DNA of 64,000 bases from a virus: positions 33,707-97,706 of IMG/VR virus record IMGVR_UViG_3300045988_134682; one strand, 5' to 3'. The notes under the pieces were generated by a model. It had not been told where the DNA came from and did no database searches. It was given only the letters and a program-made list of their open reading frames with translations. Of this stretch, positions 1 to 12,687 are shown in pieces (the stretch's first letter is position 1; the number at the start of each line of letters is the position of its first letter). A program made the translations under genes and the position numbers.

Positions 1-106
1 AACTGATTATGAAAAGCATTTACCTATTGGAGATTGGTATAATAATGAAGAACAAATGCGAATCATTCATGAAGATGGATTTCCAAAACAATGGATGGTA
101 AATTGA
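1..106 (+). CDS. 3' end of upstream gene (partial, hypothetical)
   Basis: Open frame from the window edge to TGA at 104-106 (...QWMVN*). No start in window. Confidence 0.3.
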   Translation, partial: TDYEKHLPIGDWYNNEEQMRIIHEDGFPKQWMVN

Positions 107-131
107 TTTTATTTTAAAAATATTATATAAT
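103..131 (+). promoter_or_regulatory. sigma-70-like promoter (TTGATT -17- TATAAT), member of conserved promoter family
   Basis: ttgatt 103-108, 17-nt spacer, tataat 126-131, upstream of CDS 169. Confidence 0.5.
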
Positions 132-168
132 ATATTTATAAGATAAAGAAAGAGAGAATGATAAATAA

Positions 169-1287
169 ATGCAAATTGTAAACACAGGAAGTATTTATAG
201 AATTTATGATAACAGTGTTCAGACTTCAGATAAATTACCTGCCCAGTGTTATCAGGTAGATTTTAATCCACAAGCAGGATTCTATTTAACTAAGTATGAT
301 GACATTAAAATCTCTGAAAAGATTTACGGAGTTCATCTTCAGAAAGTCCAAAAGGTATTGGGTTCTTTCAAACTTGTTAATAGAAATCTTGGTGTAATTT
401 TATCTGGCGATAAGGGCATTGGAAAATCTCTTTTTGCTAAATTACTCGCGGCAAGAGGTATAGAAGAGGGCTATCCGTTAATTATTGTGAATTGTTACTA
501 TCCAGGAATTGCGGATTTTCTTACTTCAATCCAGCAGGAGGTTGTAGTTCTTTTCGATGAGTTTGATAAAACATTTTCTGGTAAAAGAGATGAATCAAAT
601 TCTATCGACGATCCGCAGACAGAAATGCTTACACTTTTTGATGGATTAAATCAAGGAAAGAAACTTTTTGTAATCACTTGCAATGAGTTAAGAGGGTTGA
701 ACGATTATCTTGTTAATAGACCTGGTCGTTTTCATTATCACATTCGCTTTGAGTATCCAACAGATATGGAAGTAAAATCCTATCTTGAGGATCAAGTTCC
801 AGAGTGTATGTATGGTGAAATTAATAAAGTAATTGCATTTAGTCACAAGGTTAATCTTAATTATGACTGTTTGCGGGCAATTGCTTTTGAGCTTACTCTT
901 GGCTCTACCTTCGAAGATGCAATTAAAGACTTAAATATCATTCGTATTGAAAAAGAAACTTATAACGCAATTCTTTATTTTAAAGATGGCGGACATGTCA
1001 AAAGAACTGTTTATCTTGATTTATTTGAAGAAGAGACTATTACCATGGATTGTTATGATGAGAATGGTTTTAATTTCTGTGCTTCATTTGAATCTGGCGA
1101 TATAACCTATGATTATGATAGGGGCGGCATGATTATTGATGGTAAAAAGGTTAGTCTTAACTGGTTGCCTAAATACTATGATGATAATGATGAAGAGATT
1201 GCGGCTCTCAAAAAACGTCAGGAAAGAGAGGTAGATTATATTTCTCTCCGTAGAGCTGGAACAAAAAATCTTCATTATGCTCTTTAA
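169..1287 (+). CDS. AAA+ ATPase (classic clade)
   Basis: Walker A GDKGIGKS and Walker B VVLFDEFD. NRPGRFH sensor-2/Arg motif typical of AAA family. Roughly 100-aa N-terminal and 150-aa C-terminal extra domains. Confidence 0.7.
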   Translation: MQIVNTGSIYRIYDNSVQTSDKLPAQCYQVDFNPQAGFYLTKYDDIKISEKIYGVHLQKVQKVLGSFKLVNRNLGVILSGDKGIGKSLFAKLLAARGIEEGYPLIIVNCYYPGIADFLTSIQQEVVVLFDEFDKTFSGKRDESNSIDDPQTEMLTLFDGLNQGKKLFVITCNELRGLNDYLVNRPGRFHYHIRFEYPTDMEVKSYLEDQVPECMYGEINKVIAFSHKVNLNYDCLRAIAFELTLGSTFEDAIKDLNIIRIEKETYNAILYFKDGGHVKRTVYLDLFEEETITMDCYDENGFNFCASFESGDITYDYDRGGMIIDGKKVSLNWLPKYYDDNDEEIAALKKRQEREVDYISLRRAGTKNLHYAL

Positions 1288-1488
1288 ATAAAAATTTGCT
1301 TTTAAAAAAAATATATGTTATAATTTATATATAAATTAAAAAAGACACTTTCTCAGCAATTAAAGAAAATGGATAATAAAATTGTGTTGTGAATGATTTT
1401 TAGAGGGTTCAAATCCCTCAAATGAAAAATAAAGTGTCTTGATGAACTATTCAAGATAAACTCCTCACCGGAGTGTGAGGAGTATTAA

Positions 1489-1570
1489 GCTGGTATGGTG
1501 GAACGGTATACACGGCGGACTTAAAATCCGCTGGCTCCGAGCCTTGCGGGTTCGAATCCCGCTACCAGCA
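1489..1570 (+). tRNA. tRNA-Leu(TAA): tRNA-Leu (anticodon TAA), type II with long variable arm
   Basis: Acceptor gctggta/taccagc, anticodon stem gcgga/tccgc with loop cttaaaa, variable hairpin ggctccgagcc, T-arm cgggttcgaatcccg. Confidence 0.85.
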
Positions 1571-1655
1571 CTAACTAAAAATCAATAGGAGGGATAATAT
1601 ATGTTCTATCATATTGGTACAGTCTTCTAAGTCCTTGGAAAGGAGGATTTAGATA

Positions 1656-1976
1656 ATGAGTAGAAGTTATAAAAAAACGCCTTGGGCTGGAGACAAAAAA
1701 GGCAAAATAAAAAAACGGATTGCAAATCAGACAGTTCGTTCTTGGCTGAAACAGCATCCAGATGTAAAACTTTCAAAAAGCGATTTTAAAAAAATTTATG
1801 AAACTTGGGATATTTGTGATTATGGATATAAAATGACTTGGGAAGAATATTGGGAAAGTGAAATTAGACATTATTATTGGTTTAAAATGAATTTTCCTGA
1901 AGCAAAGAAATCTAAGTATTGTAAGTATCCAGACAAAAAAAAACTTATAGACAGTGGTACAAATGGTATAAAATGA
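1656..1976 (+). CDS. hypothetical protein (basic, Trp/Tyr-rich)
   Basis: ORF with strong RBS ggaaaggagg 9 nt upstream. Lies between tRNA genes. Confidence 0.5.
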   Translation: MSRSYKKTPWAGDKKGKIKKRIANQTVRSWLKQHPDVKLSKSDFKKIYETWDICDYGYKMTWEEYWESEIRHYYWFKMNFPEAKKSKYCKYPDKKKLIDSGTNGIK

Positions 1977-2010
1977 AATGATTTGATTTTTATAAAATTT
2001 TTTGATATAA

Positions 2011-2021
2011 TAAATATAGAA
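2011..2021 (+). promoter_or_regulatory. extended -10 promoter (TGaTATAAT) likely driving tRNA-Gly
   Basis: ttgatataat followed by the conserved atatagaaagttaa motif seen downstream of other promoters in this window. Confidence 0.4.
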
Positions 2022-2090
2022 AGTTAAAGAACTTTCCTCTTTTTAAATTTCTCTTAAAAATAGCAAATGTTTTAAACATTTGCTAAATAT

Positions 2091-2162
2091 GCGGGTGTGG
2101 TGTAGTTGGCAACATACGTGCCTTCCAAGCATGTGTCACGGGTTCAAATCCCGTTACCCGCT
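2091..2162 (+). tRNA. tRNA-Gly(TCC): tRNA-Gly (anticodon TCC)
   Basis: Acceptor gcgggtg/tacccgc, anticodon stem cgtgc/gcatg with loop cttccaa, T-arm acgggttcaaatcccgt. Confidence 0.85.
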
Positions 2163-2473
2163 CTAAAGAGCCATAAACTGCAAAATAATTTATATCTTTA
2201 AATGGATATTATTAATAAAATTACATACATATTAAAATATGATGATGCAATGCTTCTCAGTAAACTAAATAGGCTGGGCTCTTGATATATAAAGCAGTAT
2301 TAGTAAAAAGAAGCATCTATTTAATTTTTAATGGTTTTATAATTTACATTAAGGCATAAACAGCAATCGTTGATTAAATTCAAGCAAATATTTTATTATA
2401 TGAGAATAAAACATATTTTTGAAAAAGGATGATTATTATGCCTTGAAAAAAGGGCATTTTTGCCCCTCTTTTT

Positions 2474-2546
2474 GTGCCAGTAGCTTAGTTGGCAAAGCAC
2501 CGGACTTTTAATCCGGTTACCGCGGGTTCAAGTCCCGCCTGGCACA
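2474..2546 (+). tRNA. tRNA-Lys(TTT): tRNA-Lys (anticodon TTT)
   Basis: Acceptor gtgccag/ctggcac, anticodon stem ccgga/tccgg with loop cttttaa, T-arm gcgggttcaagtcccgc. Confidence 0.85.
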
Positions 2547-2560
2547 CTTTTTAAAGGAGA

Positions 2561-3034
2561 ATGAATATGAAAATTATGACATCTTATTTTTATCAGATTC
2601 GATTTTTTAAACCTTATATGATTCCTCTTAGTACAGCTAAATGGGATCCTAAATGGTTTCATAAAAGCCAAGGTCAAGATTATCAATTTAAAGATAAAAA
2701 TGGAGTGTGGAATGGTTTAAGAGCAGAGCCATTTGCGCCAGGTCCTTTATGTGAAGGATTATGCTCTGGTCCAAAAGGATGTGCAAGTGCCGCAAATGAT
2801 TGTATGTTTTTAAAAACCTATAAAATGCAATTAGAGCATTTAGATTTTCAAGATATTCTTTCAAGGATTGAGTCTATTGGATATGCTGTTAAAGAGCAAG
2901 AAAAATTCCAAGAGGAACCAGTTGTAATCTTAATTGTGCATGAAGCTTTTGGAAATCATTGTTCAGAACGTGAGCCAATTCAAGAGTGGTTTGCGGAGAA
3001 TGGGTATCCGATAGAAGAGTTTCAGGCGGGATAG
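2561..3034 (+). CDS. hypothetical protein
   Basis: ORF with RBS aaaggag. Its stop codon overlaps the 5' end of tRNA-Cys by 10 nt. Confidence 0.5.
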   Translation: MNMKIMTSYFYQIRFFKPYMIPLSTAKWDPKWFHKSQGQDYQFKDKNGVWNGLRAEPFAPGPLCEGLCSGPKGCASAANDCMFLKTYKMQLEHLDFQDILSRIESIGYAVKEQEKFQEEPVVILIVHEAFGNHCSEREPIQEWFAENGYPIEEFQAG

Positions 3035-3098
3035 CCAAGTTGGTTAAGGCGGCGGTCTGCAAAACCGCTATTCAGGGGTTCGAGTCCCCTTCCCGCCT
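3025..3098 (+). tRNA. tRNA-Cys(GCA): tRNA-Cys (anticodon GCA)
   Basis: Acceptor ggcggga/tcccgcc, anticodon stem gcggt/accgc with loop ctgcaaa, T-arm aggggttcgagtcccct. Confidence 0.85.
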
Positions 3099-3112
3099 CT
3101 TAAAAATCTTAA

Positions 3113-3141
3113 TTGATTTTTAAATAAAAATATAATATAAT
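3113..3141 (+). promoter_or_regulatory. sigma-70-like promoter of conserved family
   Basis: ttgatt 3113-3118, 17-nt spacer, tataat 3136-3141. A long (about 200 nt) leader follows before CDS 3358. Confidence 0.5.
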
Positions 3142-3357
3142 ATATATGTAAGATAAAGAAAGGTGCTTACAGCTAAAAAAAATATTTTTATACTGTGGTA
3201 GGTATAAACGAAAGTAAAGGGAATGTTGGTTCATATCCAGCCAGAAGTAATTCTGTAGTTTAAGTGGGAAAAATTAAAACGCCCTAACCGAAAAGTATCT
3301 TGTTAAAAATCAATTACGACCTTGTAATAAGGTTAAGAGAAAAAGGAGATTTTATCT

Positions 3358-4881
3358 ATGAATAGTTTTATGAATGGAATGAAAGCAGCTACAAACTTCA
3401 CAACAACTGAAAATGGTGCTATTACACATAAGACAACTAATTCCGATTTGTTGGATATGTTCGCACTTGGTGGAGCATATCGTAACAGAAGCGATGATGA
3501 TGTAAAAACACTTGTAAGAAATGCTTTCAGAGAGAACCCTGTTTACGCTCTGAAATGTTTATTCTACCTGCGTGACGTGCGTGGTGGACAGGGTGAGCGT
3601 AGATTTTTCCGTGTAGCAATCAAAGATCTGGTTGCTGTCGATAGAGAAGCGGTACGTAGAAACCTGATTCATGTACCTGAGTTTGGTCGTTGGGATGATC
3701 TGTATGTATTCGTAGGAACACCTCTTGAAGGAGATGCTCTGAAGATTATGAAAGACCAGCTCGCACTTGATGTTCAGTGCAAAACTCCATCTCTGCTTGC
3801 AAAATGGCTGAAATCTGAGAATACTTCTTCTCATGAGTCTCGCAGACTTGGAAAAGTAACTCGTAAATATTTTGGAATGACTGCAAAGCAGTATCGTAAG
3901 ACTCTTTCTATCCTTCGTGCTCGTATTAACGTTCTTGAGCGTTTGATGTCTGAGAATCGTTGGGATGAAATTGAGTTCGATAAGATTCCATCTAAAGCAG
4001 GTATGAAGTATAAGAACGCTTTCGCAAGACACGACATTGAGCGTGCAAAAACTGGAGCACAGACTTATGCGGACTTTGCTAAGGATGAGACTAAGACTGT
4101 TAATGCGGCAGTCCTGAATCCAGTAGATATCGCAAGTCAGATTTTCGGTTATGGTGGATACTACGGTGCTCCAACTCAGACTAAGCGTTTGATGTGGGAT
4201 AAATATTGGGCAAACCTTAAAGACTATTACAATGGTCATGAGGAGAACGGAATTGCAATCGTCGATGTATCTGGCTCTATGAGTGGTACTCCAATGAATG
4301 CGGCAGTATCTATGGGTGCTTATATCGCAGAGCGTGGTAAAGGTCCTTTCCAGAACCATTTCATCACATTCTCCAGCAATCCTCAGCTTGTTAGATTTGA
4401 TGGAGTGGATATTTACGATAAATTCCAGAGAGCACGTTCTGCTGACTGGGGTGGAAGCACAAACATTGAGGCAACTTTTGACCTTATGTTAAATGTCGCT
4501 CTTAAAAATAAAGTTCCTGCTTCTGAGATGCCAAAAACTCTTTATATCTTCTCTGATATGGAGTTTAATGGTTGTATGTCTTTTGGACGTCCTTCCAGAA
4601 ATCGTTGGAGTTATGGAAACCGTATTACCGGTGGTATTGATGAAATCAATACTATGCTTGAGAACATTGCTCAGAAGTGGATGGCTTATGGCTATGAGCT
4701 TCCAAGAGTAATCTTCTGGAATCTTGATGCAAGACAGAATAACATTCCAGCCCTTGGCGGAAGATTCTCATATGTATCTGGATTCTCAATGACGATGGTA
4801 GAAGAAATTCTCTCTGGAGAAGATGGCTACTCTCTCATGATGAAGAAGCTCGATTCTGAAAGATACTCTTGTATTCAGTAA
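3358..4881 (+). CDS. vWA-domain protein (DUF2828-like N-terminal region plus C-terminal von Willebrand A MIDAS)
   Basis: MIDAS motif IVDVSGSMSG plus downstream T/D residues. About 280-aa N-terminal domain. RBS aaaaaggag. Confidence 0.6.
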   Translation: MNSFMNGMKAATNFTTTENGAITHKTTNSDLLDMFALGGAYRNRSDDDVKTLVRNAFRENPVYALKCLFYLRDVRGGQGERRFFRVAIKDLVAVDREAVRRNLIHVPEFGRWDDLYVFVGTPLEGDALKIMKDQLALDVQCKTPSLLAKWLKSENTSSHESRRLGKVTRKYFGMTAKQYRKTLSILRARINVLERLMSENRWDEIEFDKIPSKAGMKYKNAFARHDIERAKTGAQTYADFAKDETKTVNAAVLNPVDIASQIFGYGGYYGAPTQTKRLMWDKYWANLKDYYNGHEENGIAIVDVSGSMSGTPMNAAVSMGAYIAERGKGPFQNHFITFSSNPQLVRFDGVDIYDKFQRARSADWGGSTNIEATFDLMLNVALKNKVPASEMPKTLYIFSDMEFNGCMSFGRPSRNRWSYGNRITGGIDEINTMLENIAQKWMAYGYELPRVIFWNLDARQNNIPALGGRFSYVSGFSMTMVEEILSGEDGYSLMMKKLDSERYSCIQ

Positions 4882-4888
4882 AAATATG

Positions 4889-4918
4889 CGAGCTGGAATT
4901 TTCCAGCTCGTTTTTTTT
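4889..4918 (+). terminator. rho-independent terminator
   Basis: Stem cgagctggaa/ttccagctcg followed by T8. Confidence 0.7.
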
Positions 4919-4983
4919 GGATAAGATAGACTCAACCTTTTATTTAAAAAAGAATATAATATATAAGAAAAGGAAGAGTCTAT

Positions 4984-5700
4984 ATGAGATTTATAGATAT
5001 AACAGGTCAAAAATTTAATCATCTACAAGTTTTAGAAAGGGTTCCAGGAACCTCTCCAATACAGTGGAAATGTAAATGTGATTGCGGAAAAATAGTAAAT
5101 GTAAGAGGTACCTATTTACGAAATGGACATACTAAATCATGTGGGTGTGAAAGAGTAAAAGCTGGACAACAACAAGGTAAAAAAAATTTAAACGATTTAT
5201 CTGGTCAACATTTTGGATTCTTAACAGTATTAAAAGATACAGGAAAACGACAAAATAAAAATGTAGTATGGTTATGTAAATGCGTGTGCGGTAATGAAAC
5301 AGAAGTTCTTACAACTAATCTTCGAGATGGTTCTACAAAATCTTGTGGATGCATTAAAAAATCTTTTGGTGAAGCTAAAATAGAATCAATCTTAAAAGAA
5401 AATAAAATTTCTTATATTTCTGAATTATGTATTCCAGAATTAAATAATGCAAGATATGATTTTGCAATTTTAGAAAATAATAAAATAATTCGCTTAATAG
5501 AATTTGATGGAGAACATCATTATCAAGAAATATCTTTCCATAAAGATAACAGATATAGTTTAAAAGATAGACAAGAACGAGATAAAAAGAAAAATGAATG
5601 GGCTAAAAATAATAATATTCCACTAGTTAGAATCCCATATTGGGAAAAAGAAAATATTGCTTTAGAAATGCTAATGGATTCTAAATATGAGGTAAAATAA
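4984..5700 (+). CDS. free-standing homing-endonuclease-like protein: two Cys-rich (CxCxCG...TKSCGC) DNA-binding repeats plus C-terminal DUF559/Vsr-like (PD-(D/E)xK) nuclease
   Basis: Duplicated WKCKCDCGK...SCGCER and WLCKCVCGN...SCGCIKK modules. C-terminal DFAIL...IEFDGEHHYQ...IPLVRIPYWE matches the DUF559 (E-x-DG-x-x-H ... G-x-V-R) signature. Flanked by a duplicated gene end. Confidence 0.55.
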   Translation: MRFIDITGQKFNHLQVLERVPGTSPIQWKCKCDCGKIVNVRGTYLRNGHTKSCGCERVKAGQQQGKKNLNDLSGQHFGFLTVLKDTGKRQNKNVVWLCKCVCGNETEVLTTNLRDGSTKSCGCIKKSFGEAKIESILKENKISYISELCIPELNNARYDFAILENNKIIRLIEFDGEHHYQEISFHKDNRYSLKDRQERDKKKNEWAKNNNIPLVRIPYWEKENIALEMLMDSKYEVK

Positions 5701-5828
5701 TGACAATTAAAGAAGCTATTGAAGTATTAAAAAATCTTCATATTTCATTTGAAGACTCAGATAAAAGAGAAAAAATTAAAGAAGCGTTAGAAATAGCAAT
5801 TGCAGTCCTTGATAATGAAGATTATTGA
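5700..5828 (+). CDS. small hypothetical protein (42 aa) within the endonuclease cassette
   Basis: ATG overlaps the upstream stop (taATGa). Charged helical peptide. Low support. Confidence 0.3.
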   Translation: MTIKEAIEVLKNLHISFEDSDKREKIKEALEIAIAVLDNEDY

Positions 5829-5830
5829 AC

Positions 5831-5917
5831 ATGGTAGAAACTATTCTGTCTGGTAAGGATGGATATGATCTGATGATGGAGAAGTTGAACACTGAGCGTT
5901 ATGCCGTTATCGGTTAA
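5831..5917 (+). pseudogene. orphan duplicate of the 3' end of the vWA gene (nt 4795-4881)
   Basis: Translates to MVETILSGKDGYDLMMEKLNTERYAVIG*, versus MVEEILSGEDGYSLMMKKLDSERYSCIQ* at the true gene end. 19/28 aa identical, same length, no upstream gene body. Confidence 0.6.
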
Positions 5918-5930
5918 TGCTCCTAATTTT

Positions 5931-5960
5931 CCCTTCCGAGAAATCGGGAGGGATTTTTTT
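5931..5960 (+). terminator. rho-independent terminator
   Basis: cccttccgag...cgggaggg stem followed by T7. Confidence 0.55.
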
Positions 5961-6132
5961 ATGCCTTTAAAGAACGCATAATCTACTCCGGCCGGCCACA
6001 ACCATAAAGACCGAAAATCAAAATGAAAATTGCTTTTAGTATTTTTTTCCTGGGCAAAGCCGTTATATTACATTCGTGATTTTTTTAAGTGCTTATAGCA
6101 GGGAAATTTAAAAGAAAGGAGTAGCTTTATAT

Positions 6133-6312
6133 ATGATTATTACTACATCAAATAGTGGACATACTGCATATGGATTGAAAGATTATGTAATTGACAGGAA
6201 AGCTGATTTAGAAGATCTTCCAGTTGATGTTCCTATGGGCAGTACTGCTTTCTGCATTGAAGATAGTTCCGTATATATGATTAATAGCTCCAGAGAGTGG
6301 GTGGAAATCTAA
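6133..6312 (+). CDS. small hypothetical protein (59 aa)
   Basis: RBS aaaggag. Stop is adjacent to the start of the next gene (translational coupling). Confidence 0.4.
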   Translation: MIITTSNSGHTAYGLKDYVIDRKADLEDLPVDVPMGSTAFCIEDSSVYMINSSREWVEI

Positions 6313-7251
6313 ATGGCAATAGATGTTGTAACTCTTGCTCTTGCAAAAAAATATACAAAAGAATCTTTAGAGGGCGCAGGCGCTCTTAAGGGTGAAAAAG
6401 GAGACCCATTTACCTATAATGATTTCACTCCCGAACAACTTTTAGCTCTAAAAGGTGAAAATGGTATTGACGGCAAATCAGCCTATCAGCTTGCAGTTAA
6501 TAACGGTTTTGTTGGAACTGAAGCTGAATGGATTACTTCTCTAAAAGGAGAAACAGGACCGATCGGTCCAGCAGGACCGCAAGGTCAAACTGGAGAGACT
6601 GGCGCCACCGGTCCAGTAGGACCGCAAGGTGAAGTTGGACCAAAAGGCGATAGTTATCAAATTACAGAAAGCGATTATGCGGCGATTGCAGGCATGATTT
6701 CAGTCCCATCTAAGACTTCAGAATTAACTAATGATTCAAATTTTGTTAATGATATTAAATTAAATGGAGAACCTGTGGCAAATCAGAATGGCTCTATTGA
6801 TTTGCAGCTTGGTAACTTAGATACTACTCTTGGAGAGACTATTACGTGTAATCAAACAATTGGTGGTATTGCTGCTGGTACTACTTTTTCTGAAGATACT
6901 ACTCTTGCTGATATTATTAGAGCTTTATTAAAAATTCCTGTTGTTGAAACAGACGGAGCAATTTATTATGGACTATCACGTGATATTCCAAATTCTATTA
7001 ATGGATTAACTCCTGTTACCATTGATAGAGACACTCTTCTTTCTTCTGGTTATACTTATAAGAATATCAACACTGATAATCAGCGTGTTGTATTAGCTAT
7101 TCCTAAATCTTTTGGAATTGTTTGTTATCAGATTTCAGTTAGTGGATTTAGTATTGGTTTTGACTCTGTAGAAACTGATAAATATATTATCTATTATGAT
7201 GGACTCTCTACTGGTTCATTTAGATATGTATATAGTTTTGAGGAGGTTTAA
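6313..7251 (+). CDS. collagen-like repeat tail fibre protein
   Basis: Gly-X-Y run GETGPIGPAGPQGQTGETGATGPVGPQGEVGPKGD. C-terminal beta-rich domain. Confidence 0.65.
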   Translation: MAIDVVTLALAKKYTKESLEGAGALKGEKGDPFTYNDFTPEQLLALKGENGIDGKSAYQLAVNNGFVGTEAEWITSLKGETGPIGPAGPQGQTGETGATGPVGPQGEVGPKGDSYQITESDYAAIAGMISVPSKTSELTNDSNFVNDIKLNGEPVANQNGSIDLQLGNLDTTLGETITCNQTIGGIAAGTTFSEDTTLADIIRALLKIPVVETDGAIYYGLSRDIPNSINGLTPVTIDRDTLLSSGYTYKNINTDNQRVVLAIPKSFGIVCYQISVSGFSIGFDSVETDKYIIYYDGLSTGSFRYVYSFEEV

Positions 7252-7253
7252 GT

Positions 7254-7535
7254 ATGATTATTTTACCACAAGGATTTAAAGTATCATCCTCAGAACCGAT
7301 AGATGCTAGAATTCTTTTAACCAAAGAAGAAATGAAAAATATCAATCAAAATATAATGCCAAATATATATTTTGCATTATGTAAAGATGATGGAAAATTA
7401 TATTTATACAATAAAAACAACTCTTTTAATGATATTACTGGATATTTCTCTTTATATGAATCTCAGGTTTATGCAGATTCTATTACTCAAGAGGATATAG
7501 ACCTAATTATTGGAAAAATTAAAGAGGAACTATAA
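7254..7535 (+). CDS. hypothetical protein (tail module)
   Basis: ORF tightly coupled to the upstream fibre gene. Confidence 0.45.
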   Translation: MIILPQGFKVSSSEPIDARILLTKEEMKNINQNIMPNIYFALCKDDGKLYLYNKNNSFNDITGYFSLYESQVYADSITQEDIDLIIGKIKEEL

Positions 7536-7588
7536 AGAATAATATTCTTTATAAAATAAAATTTTTATTAAAAAGGAGGACATAAAAT

Positions 7589-7879
7589 ATGCCTGATATG
7601 AAGAAATTTTTAGATCAAGAAGGATTGGCTCTTTTATGGAGAAAGATTGAAGCTGAATTAAAAACTAGAGATGGCGGAATTTCAGAACTCTCTGATTTAA
7701 TTGAAGTTGTTGAAACTGCATTTAATAGTTACAAAACTTCAAATGATACTGCAGTGCAAACTAATACGACAGATATTGCTAGCGTTTCTAGACGAGTTGA
7801 TAGTATTGAAACTGAAATAAATAATGCAGAAGCATTCGAACCAATATCAGACAGTGATATTGATGCTCTTTTTGTTTAA
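7589..7879 (+). CDS. hypothetical structural protein with shared N-terminal motif (KKFLDxEGLALLW)
   Basis: RBS aaaggagg. N-terminus is paralogous to those of CDS 12708 and CDS 13618. Confidence 0.5.
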   Translation: MPDMKKFLDQEGLALLWRKIEAELKTRDGGISELSDLIEVVETAFNSYKTSNDTAVQTNTTDIASVSRRVDSIETEINNAEAFEPISDSDIDALFV

Positions 7880-8083
7880 AAAAGATATAAATATAAAAAG
7901 GAGATAAAAATTATGCCTTTATTAAAATATTTATTATCTAATCATTTAATTAAAGTAGATAGCTCTTTAATGAAAATTGATGAAAATAGAAAATGCTAAA
8001 GTGCCTGGGCTTTATGATGAAAATGATAATTTAATTAAAGCTTGGGATGAATTGGTAGCAGAAGGGCTGGTGACTGTTGAATA

Positions 8084-9460
8084 ATGCGTACTTTAAAGAG
8101 AGTAGATAAGAATTTAGCGGGTAAATTGAAGATTCCTAATAATATAACTAATATTGATAGTTTTGCTTTTAGCGGATGTAACAATTTAATATCAATAGAT
8201 ATCCCAAATAGTGTAACTCGAATTGATTCTGGTGCTTTTCAAGGTTGCAAAAATTTAACATCAATTCATCTTTCTGATAATATAACTTCTATTAATTGGG
8301 GAACTTTTGATAGTTGTAACAATTTAATATCAATAGATATCCCAAATAGTGTAACTCGAATTGGGGAGGGCGCCTTTAATTATTGTACGAGCTTAACATC
8401 AGTAAATATTCCAGATAGTGTAATTAGTATTGATAAGTTGGCTTTTAGAAATTGTAAAAAATTAACCTCAATAAATATTCCAGATGGTGTAATTAGTATT
8501 GGAGAAAAAACTTTTGAAGACTGTGCAAATTTAACTTCAATAAATATTCCAGATGGTGTGACCAATATTGGACAAGAAGCTTTTAAAAATTGTGCAAATT
8601 TAACTTCAATAAATATTCCAGATGGTGTAACTATTATTGGAGGTTCAGCTTTTGCTGGTTGCACGAATTTAACTTCAATAAATATTCCAGATAGTACTTC
8701 TGAAATTTATGTAGGAGCATTTAAAGATTGTGTAAATTTAACTTCAATTCGTTTTCCAGATGGATCAAAGTATGTTGCTGAGAGAGTTTGTGAAGGATGT
8801 TCAAACTTAACTTCTGTTGTTATAGCTGATAGTGTTGAAACAATTTATAAGTATGCTTTTTCTAAATGTTCTAATTTAATATCTATAGATATTCCTAGTA
8901 ATATAACTAAAATTAGTTCATATGCTTTTAGTGACTGTACAAATTTAACTTCAATTACTATTCCTAATAGTGCTGTTGATATTGAAATACATGCTTTTGA
9001 AAATTTACCTTATATGCCAAAAGGAACTTATGAATATAATTCTATGAAATATAAAAATGGAATATTATGTACTGGTATTTGGGAAGATGATTTATATTAC
9101 AAAGATGGAATATTAGGTACTGGTATTTATGAAGATAAATATTACAAAGATGGAGTACGTAGTATATTATTTACTGGTATTTATAATGATAAATACTATG
9201 AAAATGGTATGCTTTTCACTGGTATTAAGGACGGCCAATACTATGAAAATGGCGTACTTGCTAAACCAGCATATTCAACAATTACAGAATCTAATGGTGT
9301 TTTAGAAGTAACAGGTGATTATAAAGAAATCGCAAATGATAATGGCACAACTTTATATCTTGAAACGCTTGATGTTACTGAATCTAATGACACTTTAACG
9401 ATTAATAGTAATTATGTAAAAGAAATCCCTAACGAAAAGGGAACAACATTATATATTTAA
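8084..9460 (+). CDS. receptor-binding/adhesin-like protein: BspA-type leucine-rich repeats plus choline-type cell-wall-binding repeats
   Basis: About 12 tandem 22-aa LRRs (NLTSINIPDGVTxIGxxAFxxC). C-terminal YYKDG..TGIYEDKYY repeats resemble CW_binding_1 repeats. Confidence 0.7.
   Translation: MRTLKRVDKNLAGKLKIPNNITNIDSFAFSGCNNLISIDIPNSVTRIDSGAFQGCKNLTSIHLSDNITSINWGTFDSCNNLISIDIPNSVTRIGEGAFNYCTSLTSVNIPDSVISIDKLAFRNCKKLTSINIPDGVISIGEKTFEDCANLTSINIPDGVTNIGQEAFKNCANLTSINIPDGVTIIGGSAFAGCTNLTSINIPDSTSEIYVGAFKDCVNLTSIRFPDGSKYVAERVCEGCSNLTSVVIADSVETIYKYAFSKCSNLISIDIPSNITKISSYAFSDCTNLTSITIPNSAVDIEIHAFENLPYMPKGTYEYNSMKYKNGILCTGIWEDDLYYKDGILGTGIYEDKYYKDGVRSILFTGIYNDKYYENGMLFTGIKDGQYYENGVLAKPAYSTITESNGVLEVTGDYKEIANDNGTTLYLETLDVTESNDTLTINSNYVKEIPNEKGTTLYI
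8144..8990 (+). repeat. tandem 66-nt (22-codon) LRR-encoding repeats
   Basis: Near-identical nucleotide repeats, for example 8196-8250 versus 8319-8373. They also create a spurious antisense ORF. Confidence 0.7.
9044..9259 (+). repeat. tandem cell-wall-binding-type repeats (about 48-54 nt units)
   Basis: At least four repeats of the GTGIxxDxYYKDG motif. Confidence 0.55.
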
Positions 9461-9480
9461 TTTTAGGAAGAAAAAATATT

Positions 9481-9873
9481 ATGGCAATTAATAAAGTTAT
9501 TGTAAATGGTGAAACCAAACTTGATTTAACAGCTGATACTGCTACCGTAGATAATGTTCAAAAAGGTTTTACTTTTCATGATGCTACTGGTGTATTAAAA
9601 ACTGGAGTAGCTAATGTTGGCGGAATAGATGGTTATTATATTGAAAAGATTTTCGATGCTGATGAAATTCATAATGATAATAGTACTGTAAGTGTTGATG
9701 TTACCACAAATGGTAAGTATTGCTTCTTTTGTATCGATGAACTTAGTAGCTATATTAATATAATTGAATGGTATGACGGTAGTAATGGTTATAATAAAAC
9801 AGTATATGTTATATCTACTCAGCCCATTGAAAATCTATCATGGTATGAAAATAGTTCTTCTTCCTCTTACTAA
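9481..9873 (+). CDS. hypothetical protein (tail module)
   Basis: ORF with Ser-rich C-terminus. Confidence 0.45.
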   Translation: MAINKVIVNGETKLDLTADTATVDNVQKGFTFHDATGVLKTGVANVGGIDGYYIEKIFDADEIHNDNSTVSVDVTTNGKYCFFCIDELSSYINIIEWYDGSNGYNKTVYVISTQPIENLSWYENSSSSSY

Positions 9874-9894
9874 TTTTAACTCTATACAACATTT

Positions 9895-11550
9895 ATGTAT
9901 AAATTATCTATAATCACAATAAATAAAAATAATTCCATCGGATTAGAAAAAACAATTCAAAGTGTCATTAACCAAACGTATTTTGATAAAATAGAATATA
10001 TTATTATAGATGGGCTATCTACTGATAGCTCATCTTTTATAATAGACAAATACAAAGATTATTTTTCTTATTGGATTTCCGAAGAAGATAATGGTATTTA
10101 CGATGCAATGAATAAGGGTACTAATGCCGCCATAGGAAAGTATTTATTATTCTTAAATAGTGGAGATGTATTATATCATAATAAAATCATTGAAGAAATT
10201 TATTCAGAATTAAATACATATGATATTGTATATGGAGGCGTTGAATATGAAGGAGAAAAACATATTATTCGAATTCCTCCAGAAAAATTAGATTATATTT
10301 ATTTTTCAAAAAGACGATCAGTATTTCATCAGGGTGCTTTTATTTCTAAAAAATTATTATTAGAATTACCATACGACACTTCATATAAATTAATGGGAGA
10401 TGTAAATTTCTTTTTTAATGCAATATGTATAAAAAAAGCAACTTATAAAAGAATATTAAAAAAAATTGCTATTTTTGATATAAATGGGATATCTTCTAGA
10501 GAAGTTTATGCAAAAGAAAAAGAAAAAACTAAGATTCTATTAAATGGATTAAAATATATTGAAGACGAAAATATTAAACAAAATTTTCTAAAAAATATAA
10601 AAGTTTATAATCGACTTATTAATCAGCTTCCAATAGATTTTGTTTTTCCATATGTGGATAATTCCGATCCAAATTGGATTCAACAATATATGAACTGTTG
10701 TACTCGTCGTCGTATGAGATTTAATACAGAAGATGTTAGATATAGAGACTATGGCACTTTAAAATATCTTTTACGAGGAATTGATAAGTGTCTACCATGG
10801 ATTAGAAATATTTATATAATTGTTGAGCAAGAAAGTCAAGTGCCAAATTGGTTAAATAGAGATAATGTAAAAATAGTATATCACAAAGATATTATTCCAG
10901 AAGATTTTTTACCTACATATAATAGTGGAACTATTGAAATGTATTTAAAAAACATTCCTGAACTATCTGAATATTTTATATATGGAAATGATGATATGTT
11001 TCCTATTTCTTTAATGGATAAATCAAATTTTTTTGACGAAGATGGACTTCCTATTCTTTCAATGCAAAAATATCAAATGGAAGATAACTGGCGTCCTAAT
11101 ACATATCAATCTATGTTACTTAATTCTAATTTTATAGCTTATAATGATTTAAATCTTATAAGAGAAGATAATACAATAATAAAATGGAATCATACGATAA
11201 CTCCAATGAGGAAATCTACTTGGGAAGGATTATTTAATAGACATAGAGAAGAAATTGAAAAATCCTGTTCAACATTTAGATCTCCTAAAAATATAACTCA
11301 AGAATTAGTCAATTCATGGCATTATTTATCGGGTCAGTATAATAAAGATTATACATTAAAAGTGAATTATATTAGTATTCAAGATATAAAAAATGAAGAT
11401 ATCTTATATGAATCTATAAAAGATTATCAAGTTATTTGTATTAATGATGGTAATATAAATAAAGAAATTTTACCATTTGAAAAAATTAAAAGTATAATCT
11501 TGAATACATTTGAAAAATTATTCCCAGAAAAAAGTAAATATGAATTATAA
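9895..11550 (+). CDS. glycosyltransferase family 2 domain fused to a Stealth-family (hexose-1-phosphoryl transferase-like) domain
   Basis: N-terminus SIITINKNN...IEYIIIDGLSTD...EDNGIYDAMNKG matches GT2. Downstream IDFVFPYVDNSDPNWIQQY (Stealth CR2), RYRDYGTLKYLLRGIDKCLPWIRNIYIIV (CR3) and YGNDDMFPI (CR4). Confidence 0.65.
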   Translation: MYKLSIITINKNNSIGLEKTIQSVINQTYFDKIEYIIIDGLSTDSSSFIIDKYKDYFSYWISEEDNGIYDAMNKGTNAAIGKYLLFLNSGDVLYHNKIIEEIYSELNTYDIVYGGVEYEGEKHIIRIPPEKLDYIYFSKRRSVFHQGAFISKKLLLELPYDTSYKLMGDVNFFFNAICIKKATYKRILKKIAIFDINGISSREVYAKEKEKTKILLNGLKYIEDENIKQNFLKNIKVYNRLINQLPIDFVFPYVDNSDPNWIQQYMNCCTRRRMRFNTEDVRYRDYGTLKYLLRGIDKCLPWIRNIYIIVEQESQVPNWLNRDNVKIVYHKDIIPEDFLPTYNSGTIEMYLKNIPELSEYFIYGNDDMFPISLMDKSNFFDEDGLPILSMQKYQMEDNWRPNTYQSMLLNSNFIAYNDLNLIREDNTIIKWNHTITPMRKSTWEGLFNRHREEIEKSCSTFRSPKNITQELVNSWHYLSGQYNKDYTLKVNYISIQDIKNEDILYESIKDYQVICINDGNINKEILPFEKIKSIILNTFEKLFPEKSKYEL

Positions 11551-11565
11551 AAAAGGAGGCAAGAT

Positions 11566-12687
11566 ATGAAAGCACTAATTACTGGAATTAATGGGCAAGA
11601 TGGTTCATATCTTGCCGAGTTACTTTTATCGAAAAATTATGAAGTTCATGGAATTATTCGTAGAACATCGACGAACAATTTAAATAGAATTCAACATATT
11701 TTATCTAAAATTACTTTACATTATGGAGATTTATCAGATAGTTTGTCTTTGATAAAAATAATTCAAAATGTAAAGCCTGATGAAATATATAATCTTGCCG
11801 CACAATCAGATGTTAAGGTGTCATTCTCAACACCAGAATATACTGCTGATATTGATGCATTAGGAACTCTAAGATTACTAGAAGCGTGCAGAATTTGTGG
11901 AATAGATAAAACAGTTAAGTTTTATCAAGCCTCTACTTCTGAATTATTCGGAAAAGTAGAGGCTTTTCCACAATCCGAAACCACGCCATTTCATCCCTAT
12001 TCTCCATACGCAATTGCAAAACAATATTCGTATTGGATTGTAAAAGAATATAGAGAAGCATATAGAATGTTTGCGGTAAATGGTATTTTATTTAATCATG
12101 AATCTGAAAGACGTGGTGAAGAATTTGTAACTCGTAAGATAACAAAATCTGTAGCTCATATTATGAATGGCACACAAGACCATTTAGAATTAGGGAATTT
12201 AGATTCTTTAAGAGATTGGGGATATGCAAATGATTATGTTGAAGCAATGTGGTTAATGCTTCAAAACGATACCCCAGATGATTTTGTTATTGCTACTGCG
12301 GATGATGGCATTTTGATTAGTTCAAGAAATGATGCTGAAAAAATCAGAAATTTAATTCCACTTCATAGACCTAATTATGAAGAAAAAAGATGGGGCGCAT
12401 ATAAAGTTTTAAAACAAGATGATAATTATCTTGTTAAAGAATTAGAACTATTGCCTTATAAAGAAATATCTTATCAATCTCATAATTATAGAAAAGAAAC
12501 ATGGACTATTGTTCAAGGGTCTGGAGAAGTAATTATTGATGGTATTACTCAACAGGTAAAGTCTGGTGATATAGTCAATATAGAAATAAAACAAAAGCAT
12601 AAACTTATTGCTGGAGAAAATGGGATTAAAATTTTTGAAGTGCAAATAGGAGATGTGCTAGAAGAGTCTGATATTATTAGATATTAA
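11566..12687 (+). CDS. GDP-mannose 4,6-dehydratase-like SDR (truncated) fused to C-terminal cupin domain
   Basis: N-terminus [31 protein letters not shown] matches Gmd and runs to DDFVIATA. The last 110 aa or so ([30 protein letters not shown]) resemble a cupin beta-barrel. Confidence 0.65.

Follow-up and report, generated by a model that had tools for sequence, protein, structure and literature searches.

The stretch analysed here, hereafter the window, comprises 64,000 nucleotides (nt) of a large human-gut phage (positions 33,707 to 97,706 of IMG/VR virus record IMGVR_UViG_3300045988_134682), and it carries a gene for a 507-amino-acid (aa) vWA-type protein (3358-4881, plus strand) whose last 28 codons are present twice. 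We consider it about 85% probable that positions 4795-5830 are a selfish cassette of approximately 1.04 kb that inserted 28 codons before the end of this gene by a mechanism of the kind described below, bringing its own gene end together with a gene for a putative homing endonuclease, and leaving the resident gene end downstream as an orphan. This reading is founded on the anatomy of the locus, the evidence that the in-frame end is foreign and the orphan native, the presence or absence of the insert among close relatives, the decay states found in them, the independent recurrence of the arrangement in distant lineages, and the fold of the nuclease. A sequence-only reading of the window had already proposed a gene-end replacement by a mobile endonuclease cassette carrying its own copy of the 3' end, and this proposal is supported by relatives with an empty site and by the foreign character of the in-frame end.

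The vWA gene ends in frame with MVEEILSGEDGYSLMMKKLDSERYSCIQ and a stop codon. The orphan at 5831-5917, on the same strand, runs from ATG to TAA and encodes MVETILSGKDGYDLMMEKLNTERYAVIG followed by the stop; it has neither a gene body nor a Shine-Dalgarno sequence, and it starts two bases past a 42-aa open reading frame (ORF). Positions 4795-4881 and 5831-5917 are identical at 57 of 87 nt (66%) and at 20 of 28 aa, and their differences are distributed 11/4/15 over the three codon positions, that is, mostly over the first and the third. The next-best ungapped match of this 87-mer in the whole window, on both strands, reached 46/87, and the z value of the real pair was 8.1; tblastn gave the pair an E value of 4.7e-10. 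In a repeat search the copies were recovered as 4790-4859 and 5826-5895 (71% identity over 70 nt), being direct repeats 1036 nt apart. To the right their similarity extends as far as the stop codons, and to the left as far as about 4790/5826; they have diverged throughout, with no identical core repeat at the junctions. The interval that separates the copies contains a terminator, the nuclease gene and the 42-aa ORF (Table 1). The GC content is 21-32% in the cassette versus 40-45% in the surrounding gene. The diverged duplicate of the last 28 codons noticed in the sequence-only reading is therefore real, and its layout of an orphan without gene body after a terminator, a nuclease ORF and a small ORF agrees with the sequence and the ORF calls.

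Comparison with relatives was used to assign an origin to each copy. Megablast of positions 3300-6400 against deposited phage genomes gave no match, and a protein search returned only relatives below 43% identity. Since the deposited phages offered no close relative, the comparison was built on metagenomic contigs from IMG/VR and other assemblies, the loci being labelled L001 and so on; one of them (L140, on a 194,726-nt contig of a human gut metagenome) matched positions 4400-6400 at 100%, and the window evidently belongs to that genome. As that first reading had proposed, the window was aligned with cassette-free relatives: L002, L003 and L059 are collinear with it at about 95% identity up to the stop codon (4881/4882), lack 4882-5830, and have a native gene end, SGKDGYDLMMEKLDTERYACIK plus stop, that is of the orphan type and unlike the in-frame copy of the window. 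The gene core of the window is 95.7% identical to those of both L002 and L059, whereas its last 87 nt are only 74% and 71% identical to theirs; against L124 the values are 70.8% for the core and 83% for the last 87 nt. Accordingly, sliding identity across 4792-4881 fell from about 95% to 68-75% with L002 and rose to 82-87% with L124. The latter is a distant lineage in which a 77%-identical nuclease gene directly follows a vWA gene ending in MVEEILSGEDGYSLMMKKLNTERYSCIQ and a stop codon, without an orphan. The in-frame copy grouped with the ends of L124 and L133, both distant and nuclease-bearing, and the orphan grouped with native ends. Among the orphans, that of L125 shares 95% identity with the native L059 end; that of L001 shares 92% with the native L002 end, and behind it stands the terminator that L002 has after its intact gene. 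These identity patterns indicated that the cassette brought the in-frame end, and that the orphan with its terminator is the displaced resident end: the former is foreign and the latter native. The orphan of the window is itself chimeric, its first 33 nt matching L059 at 29/33 and L078 at 22/33, and its last 54 nt matching L059 at 39/54 and L078 at 50/54, so further recombination has occurred inside it; the intergenic region and the genes downstream in the window derive from still other lineages. In none of the relatives is the downstream copy the N-terminus of a separate gene, the case that would have spoken against this reading; everywhere it closes with a stop codon, and a terminator comes after it.

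Close relatives showed the locus in several states. The site is empty in L002, L003 and L059 and occupied in the window, L125-131 and L081, the flanks being about 95% identical in all of them. A clean insertion, running from the stop codon to the native terminator and without an orphan, was found in L004/L083 (49%-identical family member) and in L081. The insertion together with the 42-aa ORF and the orphan was found in the window, in L125-131 (from several samples), in L139 and, with a shorter orphan, in L133. Finally, the nuclease gene is destroyed in L001, L136, L137 and L138, in which 4932-5563 (632 bp) is missing and one copy of AAGATAGAC is kept, the result of a deletion between the two 9-bp repeats. 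In L136 and L138, after nuclease loss, the in-frame end has partially reverted, being native-like over most of its length. In sister loci, the orphans are altered at residues that functional genes conserve (R to C in L137 and G to R in L139), and their start codon has changed from ATG to ATA in L136-139; such damaging substitutions indicated that the orphans are not maintained as coding sequence. Deletion, reversion and damaged orphans are decay states that a homing element would be expected to show. As for L081, its nuclease body is 95.8% identical to that of the window up to 5677 and continues with a tail and a junction of the L004 type; most simply, it would be a recombinant formed within the conserved IPLVRIPYWE codons. 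L081 was also considered as the ancestor of the window arrangement, but its nuclease body of the window type, continued by a tail and junction as in L004, fits a recombinant better.

The arrangement is not confined to these close relatives. Members of the nuclease family lie directly 3' of this gene in L004, L038, L049, L054/57, L061, L062/64-66, L068, L080, L081, L124, L133 and L139, and the vWA proteins of those recurrence lineages are 52-66% identical to that of the window. Shorter orphans, each followed by a terminator, were found in three distant lineages: YDLMMEKLNSERYAVIR plus stop in L061 (17 codons, about 3 kb downstream and past a second nuclease-like ORF), LMMDKLNEERYACIK plus stop in L080 (about 15 codons), and (E)KLDSERYAVIK plus stop in L062/64/65/66 (about 11 codons). 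They are independent, and their left edges differ. When all loci were scanned for motifs, a further copy of the gene end turned up in 7/12 nuclease-bearing versus 0/63 nuclease-free loci (Fisher 4e-7), and a rough count of orphans by lineage gave 4/11 with the nuclease versus 0/40 without it (p = 0.0013). These contrasts showed that the duplication is tied to the nuclease gene and is no general trait of a mosaic boundary. The interval between nuclease gene and orphan in L061 (3890-5625) contains a 117-aa ORF and the other nuclease-like ORF, which encodes 464 aa (PHROGs 4538, 559 and 9084); the L061 cassette apparently grew by stacking a second homing-type gene.

Table 1. Features of the vWA gene end and the inserted cassette in the window.
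Feature	Position	Strand	Evidence or comment
Resident core of the target gene (507-aa protein)	3358..4794	+	95.7% identical (nt) to the core in cassette-free L002 and L059
Cassette-borne foreign last 28 codons and stop, in frame with the resident core	4795..4881	+	Shift of identity from L002 to L124
Cassette-borne intrinsic terminator of the vWA gene	4888..4918 (stem 4888-4911, then T-run)	+	10-bp stem with 6 GC pairs
AT-rich leader of the nuclease gene	4919..4983	+	TATAAT at 4955-4960; ribosome-binding site AAGGAAGAG at 4970-4978
Left copy of the 9-bp direct repeat AAGATAGAC	4923..4931	+	Deletion endpoint in relatives
Free-standing homing-endonuclease-like gene (238 aa)	4984..5700	+	Cys-rich repeats and C-terminal Vsr-like nuclease domain (predicted)
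Right copy of the 9-bp direct repeat AAGATAGAC	5564..5572	+	Deletion endpoint in relatives
42-aa ORF, its stop codon abutting the orphan	5700..5828	+	Homologues and their context
Orphan (displaced native last 28 codons and stop)	5831..5917	+	Comparison with native ends
Terminator of the displaced gene end	5930..5960 (stem 5930-5953, then T-run)	+	10-bp stem

The terminator at 4888-4918 is kept in L081 and L001 and is missing from cassette-free L002. An AT-rich promoter-like motif (TTTAAA.AAAAATATAATATA) located at 3119-3153, 5' of the vWA gene region, is repeated at 4943-4977 in the leader of the nuclease gene, and similar strings come after the nuclease genes of L038 and L054. A promoter consensus scan listed no plus-strand site in 4919-4983; the leader may nevertheless act as a promoter.

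On this basis, we propose the following mechanism. The cassette would consist of a functional foreign 28-codon end with its own terminator, a free-standing homing endonuclease gene and the 42-aa ORF, and the resident last 28 codons and their terminator (5831-5960), displaced downstream, would now be an unexpressed and decaying remnant. The endonuclease would cut cassette-free alleles in the conserved 3'-terminal coding sequence, and repair off a cassette-bearing genome would copy the nuclease gene and the recoded gene end together; this recoded end would preserve the protein and render the carrier allele uncuttable. When the downstream flanks of donor and recipient match, a clean insertion would result, as in L004 and L081. 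When there is no downstream homology, the right side of the break would be joined within the 3' end of the gene itself, and the result would be a duplicated native end instead of a replaced one. It is precisely at the end of this gene that the homology of close relatives stops, and the window, L001, L002, L125 and L133 have different downstream modules.

We also considered whether the orphan is a working part of the element, serving as a portable right-hand homology arm, rather than a scar, and we regard this as a tentative idea that is probably not correct. During a mixed infection, the left end of the cut gene would pair with the gene body of the carrier and the right end with the orphan. 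If so, the cassette could home into phages with unrelated downstream genes, and the element would also drive the exchange of downstream modules. The idea is consistent with the loss of homology at this gene end, with the crossover inside the window orphan, with the origin of the window's intergenic region and downstream genes in other lineages, and with the junction between the 42-aa ORF and the orphan. This junction is identical in genomes that have at least three different orphans and unlike genes downstream: the window, L001 and L125-131, as well as L136-139, in which the downstream module is similar to that of L125. An exact-pattern scan of IMG/VR for this junction recovered only the L001 contig.

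The ends linked to the nuclease gene were compared in order to delimit a candidate target. Tracts of donor type all run to the stop codon, with left edges at about 4700 (L004), 4795 (window) and 4817 (L081); such variable tracts would be expected from obligatory co-conversion between the cut site and the downstream nuclease gene. Within the last 21 codons, nuclease-linked ends repeatedly alter the Y-D-L-M-M-E codons. The GAG-CGY pair (Glu-Arg, codons 7 and 6 before the stop) is recoded in 18/19 nuclease-linked ends (to GAA-AGA, GAT-AGA or CCT-xGx), is kept in 37/65 nuclease-free ends (raw locus counts that ignore kinship), and is kept in every orphan examined but that of L137 (GAG-TGT, a decay change). 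In these alignments GAG-CGY appears as the most consistent difference, and it could be linked to the nuclease gene by proximity alone. A target lying wholly inside the last 21 codons is hard to reconcile with intact nucleases that coexist with native orphans. Either the enzyme would recognise its site only together with sequence that lies left of where the orphan begins, or cuts in the orphan would be tolerated. I-Bth0305I has footprints of about 60 bp (PMC3239194), which makes a need for left-side sequence plausible. Together, these data narrow the search to a small, testable candidate target region at roughly 4790-4880 of the window.

Several observations weigh against the homing reading. 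We infer the cleavage activity, the position of the target and the repair pathway. Regarding the target, 28/65 nuclease-free alleles also lack GAGCGY (a count not corrected for phylogeny), and L068, which bears the nuclease, keeps GAGCGT. The YDLMMEKL codons, tried as a target, were weakened by L139, which has an intact nuclease and a native-like in-frame YDLMM stretch. Furthermore, orphans are native at every position recoded in nuclease-linked ends, so that a target wholly in the last approximately 21 codons would place a cuttable site in cis beside an intact nuclease in the window, L125-131, L133 and L139. Regarding the family, a crude scan of 47 of its sites found orphans at the vWA gene only, and orphan formation is therefore no general property of this nuclease family. 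Regarding the proteins, neither phmmer nor a 36-sequence profile found a PDB chain at E <= 10 for the nuclease, which thus has no sequence-level match to a solved nuclease and for which only the fold comparison was informative. Lastly, when a longer protein was sought from which the 42-aa ORF might derive, only proteins of 40-42 aa were found.

The most serious rival explanation is mosaic recombination, in which the gene end would be a crossover hotspot, the orphan the left edge of a swapped module, and the nuclease a passenger. The homology of close relatives that breaks exactly at the gene end, the different neighbours in the window, L001, L002, L125 and L133, and the window orphan being a chimera of two lineages all speak for it. 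However, orphans occur only with the nuclease gene (7/12 versus 0/63), the orphans of L001 and L125 match the native ends of L002 and L059 (92-95%) as closely as the cores match, which marks them as resident DNA, and the piece imported is an in-frame end together with a nuclease gene. We therefore consider a mosaic boundary with a passenger nuclease improbable.

Much less credible is a split or intron-like gene, in which the orphan would be a true downstream exon joined by RNA or protein splicing and the in-frame end an alternative or a decoy. I-Bth0305I, a nuclease of this fold class, does sit in a recA group I intron (PMC3239194), and the reading frame of the window orphan is intact. Against this, the in-frame end is complete and has its own stop codon and terminator, L081 and L124 share the gene end and the nuclease yet have no orphan, and the orphans of relatives are cut to 11-17 codons or bear damaging substitutions; in addition, beyond tRNAs and weak noise, no Rfam intron or other RNA family was found in positions 1-12000 at E <= 1. 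Integration by a site-specific recombinase at the 3' end of the gene, with a replacement end carried in the attachment site, is equally hard to sustain. A replacement 3' end with a displaced native end is the usual outcome of such events, and phage 21 and e14 in icd, as well as islands in tRNA genes, are integrations that target gene 3' ends. Nevertheless, the 1.04-kb insert encodes only the nuclease and the 42-aa protein, and no integrase, transposase or recombinase family was found in it; moreover, the copies differ along their whole length without an identical core, and the left edges of the orphans vary among lineages. A local tandem duplication that diverged in place, with the nuclease gene landing later between the copies, would account for direct repeats 1036 nt apart, but it is very improbable, since the in-frame copy groups with the L124 and L133 ends and the orphan with native ends, a pattern that divergence in place cannot give at a core difference of about 4%.

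Concerning the enzyme of the proposed homing cassette, the protein contains two Cys-rich, putatively DNA-binding repeats, W-x-C-x-C-x-C-G...S-C-G-C, at aa 28-55 and 96-123, which are predicted to form beta-hairpins, and a C-terminal domain (approximately aa 125-238) with a predicted Vsr-like fold that contains IEFDGEHH. The model was obtained with AlphaFold2 from 36 homologues, with a predicted local distance difference test score of 89.9. In PHROGs, the protein falls in families annotated as HNH or homing endonuclease. Its sole match in Pfam was DUF2726 (PF10881), below threshold (20.2 bits versus a gathering cut-off of 24.7), and a precomputed PF10881 match is present on some homologues; DUF559 was not listed by Pfam at E <= 0.01, and a search of NCBIfam returned nothing useful. 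DUF559 belongs to the same nuclease fold class as the Vsr-like domains. Therefore, of the "Cys-finger/DUF559 nuclease" named in the sequence-only reading, the Cys-rich repeats stand and are joined by a predicted Vsr-like fold, whereas DUF559 found no Pfam match and the resemblance to it is confined to motif and fold level. At least 6948 homologues are present in a large protein collection, nearly all without a name. The ratio of nonsynonymous to synonymous substitution rates (dN/dS) among orthologues 77-98% identical was 0.15-0.28, which indicated purifying selection. From the modelled structure, ORF 4984-5700 is predicted to encode a free-standing DNA endonuclease with a Vsr-like catalytic fold. 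For the 42-aa ORF, every homologue found is 40-42 aa long and every context examined is this cassette; its dN/dS is about 0.2, and its only match was a weak one to PHROG 3323.

Some nuclease homologues contain in-frame TAG codons where their relatives have Gln or Lys (L062 at 5721; L068 at 5775, 6183 and 6333; L080 at 5696, 6020 and 6518), and that of L080 also has a TGA at 5687 where relatives have Trp. In these TAG-bearing homologues, the remaining ORF is in frame and conserved. TAG may be read as Gln in the L062, L068 and L080 phages, or these genes may be young pseudogenes. More copies of the nuclease family were found 5' of the vWA gene, at 3231-3950 in L054/L057/L067 and at 1968-3014 and 3202-3957 in L068, as well as upstream of 4001 in L005, L026, L027 and L069. 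The family is thus multi-copy in these phages, and presumably it has other targets too.

The closest precedent is the fungal mitochondrial mORF, whose anatomy and phylogenetic signature are the same as those found here. Elements of this kind with a C-terminal duplication are known from atp6 of Allomyces macrogynus, from atp6, atp9, cox2 and nad3 of Glomus, from atp9 of Rhizopus and from cox2 of Mortierella (PMC3630166). In both cases an endonuclease ORF lies near the 3' end of a conserved gene, the reading frame of the resident gene continues into a foreign C-terminus, and roughly 1 kb further on stands the native C-terminus, which resembles relatives more than the inserted copy does; even the divergence is comparable, the copies of Glomus atp6 being 63.5% identical (PMC3630166) and those of the window 66%. 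The differences are that the host here is a large gut phage and not an organelle; that the nuclease is predicted to be Vsr-like with Cys-rich repeats, whereas mORFs encode LAGLIDADG or GIY-YIG enzymes; that there is no fusion, since the inserted end carries a stop codon and a terminator and the nuclease gene is preceded by a leader of its own; and that empty, clean-insertion, orphan and decayed states are all found among close relatives.

Among phages, the Seg and Mob proteins of T-even phages are free-standing homing endonucleases of the GIY-YIG or HNH type that carry out "intronless homing" with co-conversion of flanking markers. Our locus shares with them a stand-alone nuclease gene beside a conserved gene, presence/absence polymorphism, variable donor tracts, and carrier and empty alleles that differ in the presumed target; unlike them, the window enzyme is predicted to be Vsr-like. 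The EDxHD or Vsr-like homing endonucleases include I-Bth0305I, from a recA intron, and free-standing phage enzymes of the Hef type (PMC3239194). The predicted catalytic fold is shared with I-Bth0305I, but that enzyme is intron-encoded and has NUMOD/helix-turn-helix modules (PMC3239194), whereas the window nuclease gene is free-standing and its product has two N-terminal Cys-rich repeats; the two proteins show no sequence-level match. On nuclease fold, presence/absence polymorphism and donor tract, the window gene would be assigned to the homing endonuclease class, of which cleavage of the nuclease-free allele and preferential inheritance in mixed infection would be expected.

Homing endonuclease genes have been reported at boundaries of genetic exchange between phages (Barth, Dunham and Seed 2023, PMC10448857), and the nuclease gene of the window likewise lies exactly where close relatives cease to be homologous and have other modules downstream; a search through the text of that paper found no mention of a gene end that is duplicated or displaced. 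Full-text literature searches, incomplete in coverage, found no displaced or duplicated native gene end beside a phage homing endonuclease. The class is a known one, and what is new is the phage setting, with its rich comparative series. The strategy in which an endonuclease brings its own gene end would extend from fungal mitochondria to a large human-gut phage and to another nuclease family, that of the at least 6948 homologues. From the unusually complete natural series of empty site, clean insertion, displaced end, deleted nuclease and reverted target, the life cycle of a homing element in phages can be read off directly. There is also a warning for annotation: short orphan gene ends beside nuclease genes should be taken as footprints and not as small genes, and the last approximately 30 codons of such genes may differ in history from the remaining gene.

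The 507-aa target protein matched Pfam DUF7788 (vWA type; 2e-42) and DUF2828 (6e-27), and PHROG 850, "RNA-binding protein" (3e-128); it is the Ro-like protein of many large phages. Just 5' of its gene there are four tRNA genes (1489-1570, 2091-2162, 2474-2546 and 3025-3098), and the same upstream region contains an AAA ATPase gene at 169-1287. Two ORFs downstream, at 6313-7251, a collagen-repeat protein is encoded with internal repeats of 45 nt and 18/27 nt; its equivalents in relatives range from 312 to more than 1185 aa and differ in their C-terminal domains. A conserved non-coding motif (...CTACTCCGGCCGG...CCGAAAA.C.AAAAT...TTTTAG.A.TTTTT...) is located at 5975-6060, 3' of the terminator of the vWA gene, and motifs of the CTACTCCGGCCGG type were also found in L125 (about 5010-5100), L078 (downstream of 1465), L007 (7442-7508) and L051 (5396-5519), in contexts otherwise unrelated; they may represent a shared promoter or regulatory element. 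Finally, in L124 the nuclease gene and a 49-aa ORF are followed by a GC-rich region of about 420 nt without an ORF (approximately 3810-4230) that has a strong terminator at its end. This region had no Rfam match at E <= 0.1; it looks like a structured RNA gene beside the gene for the Ro-like protein.

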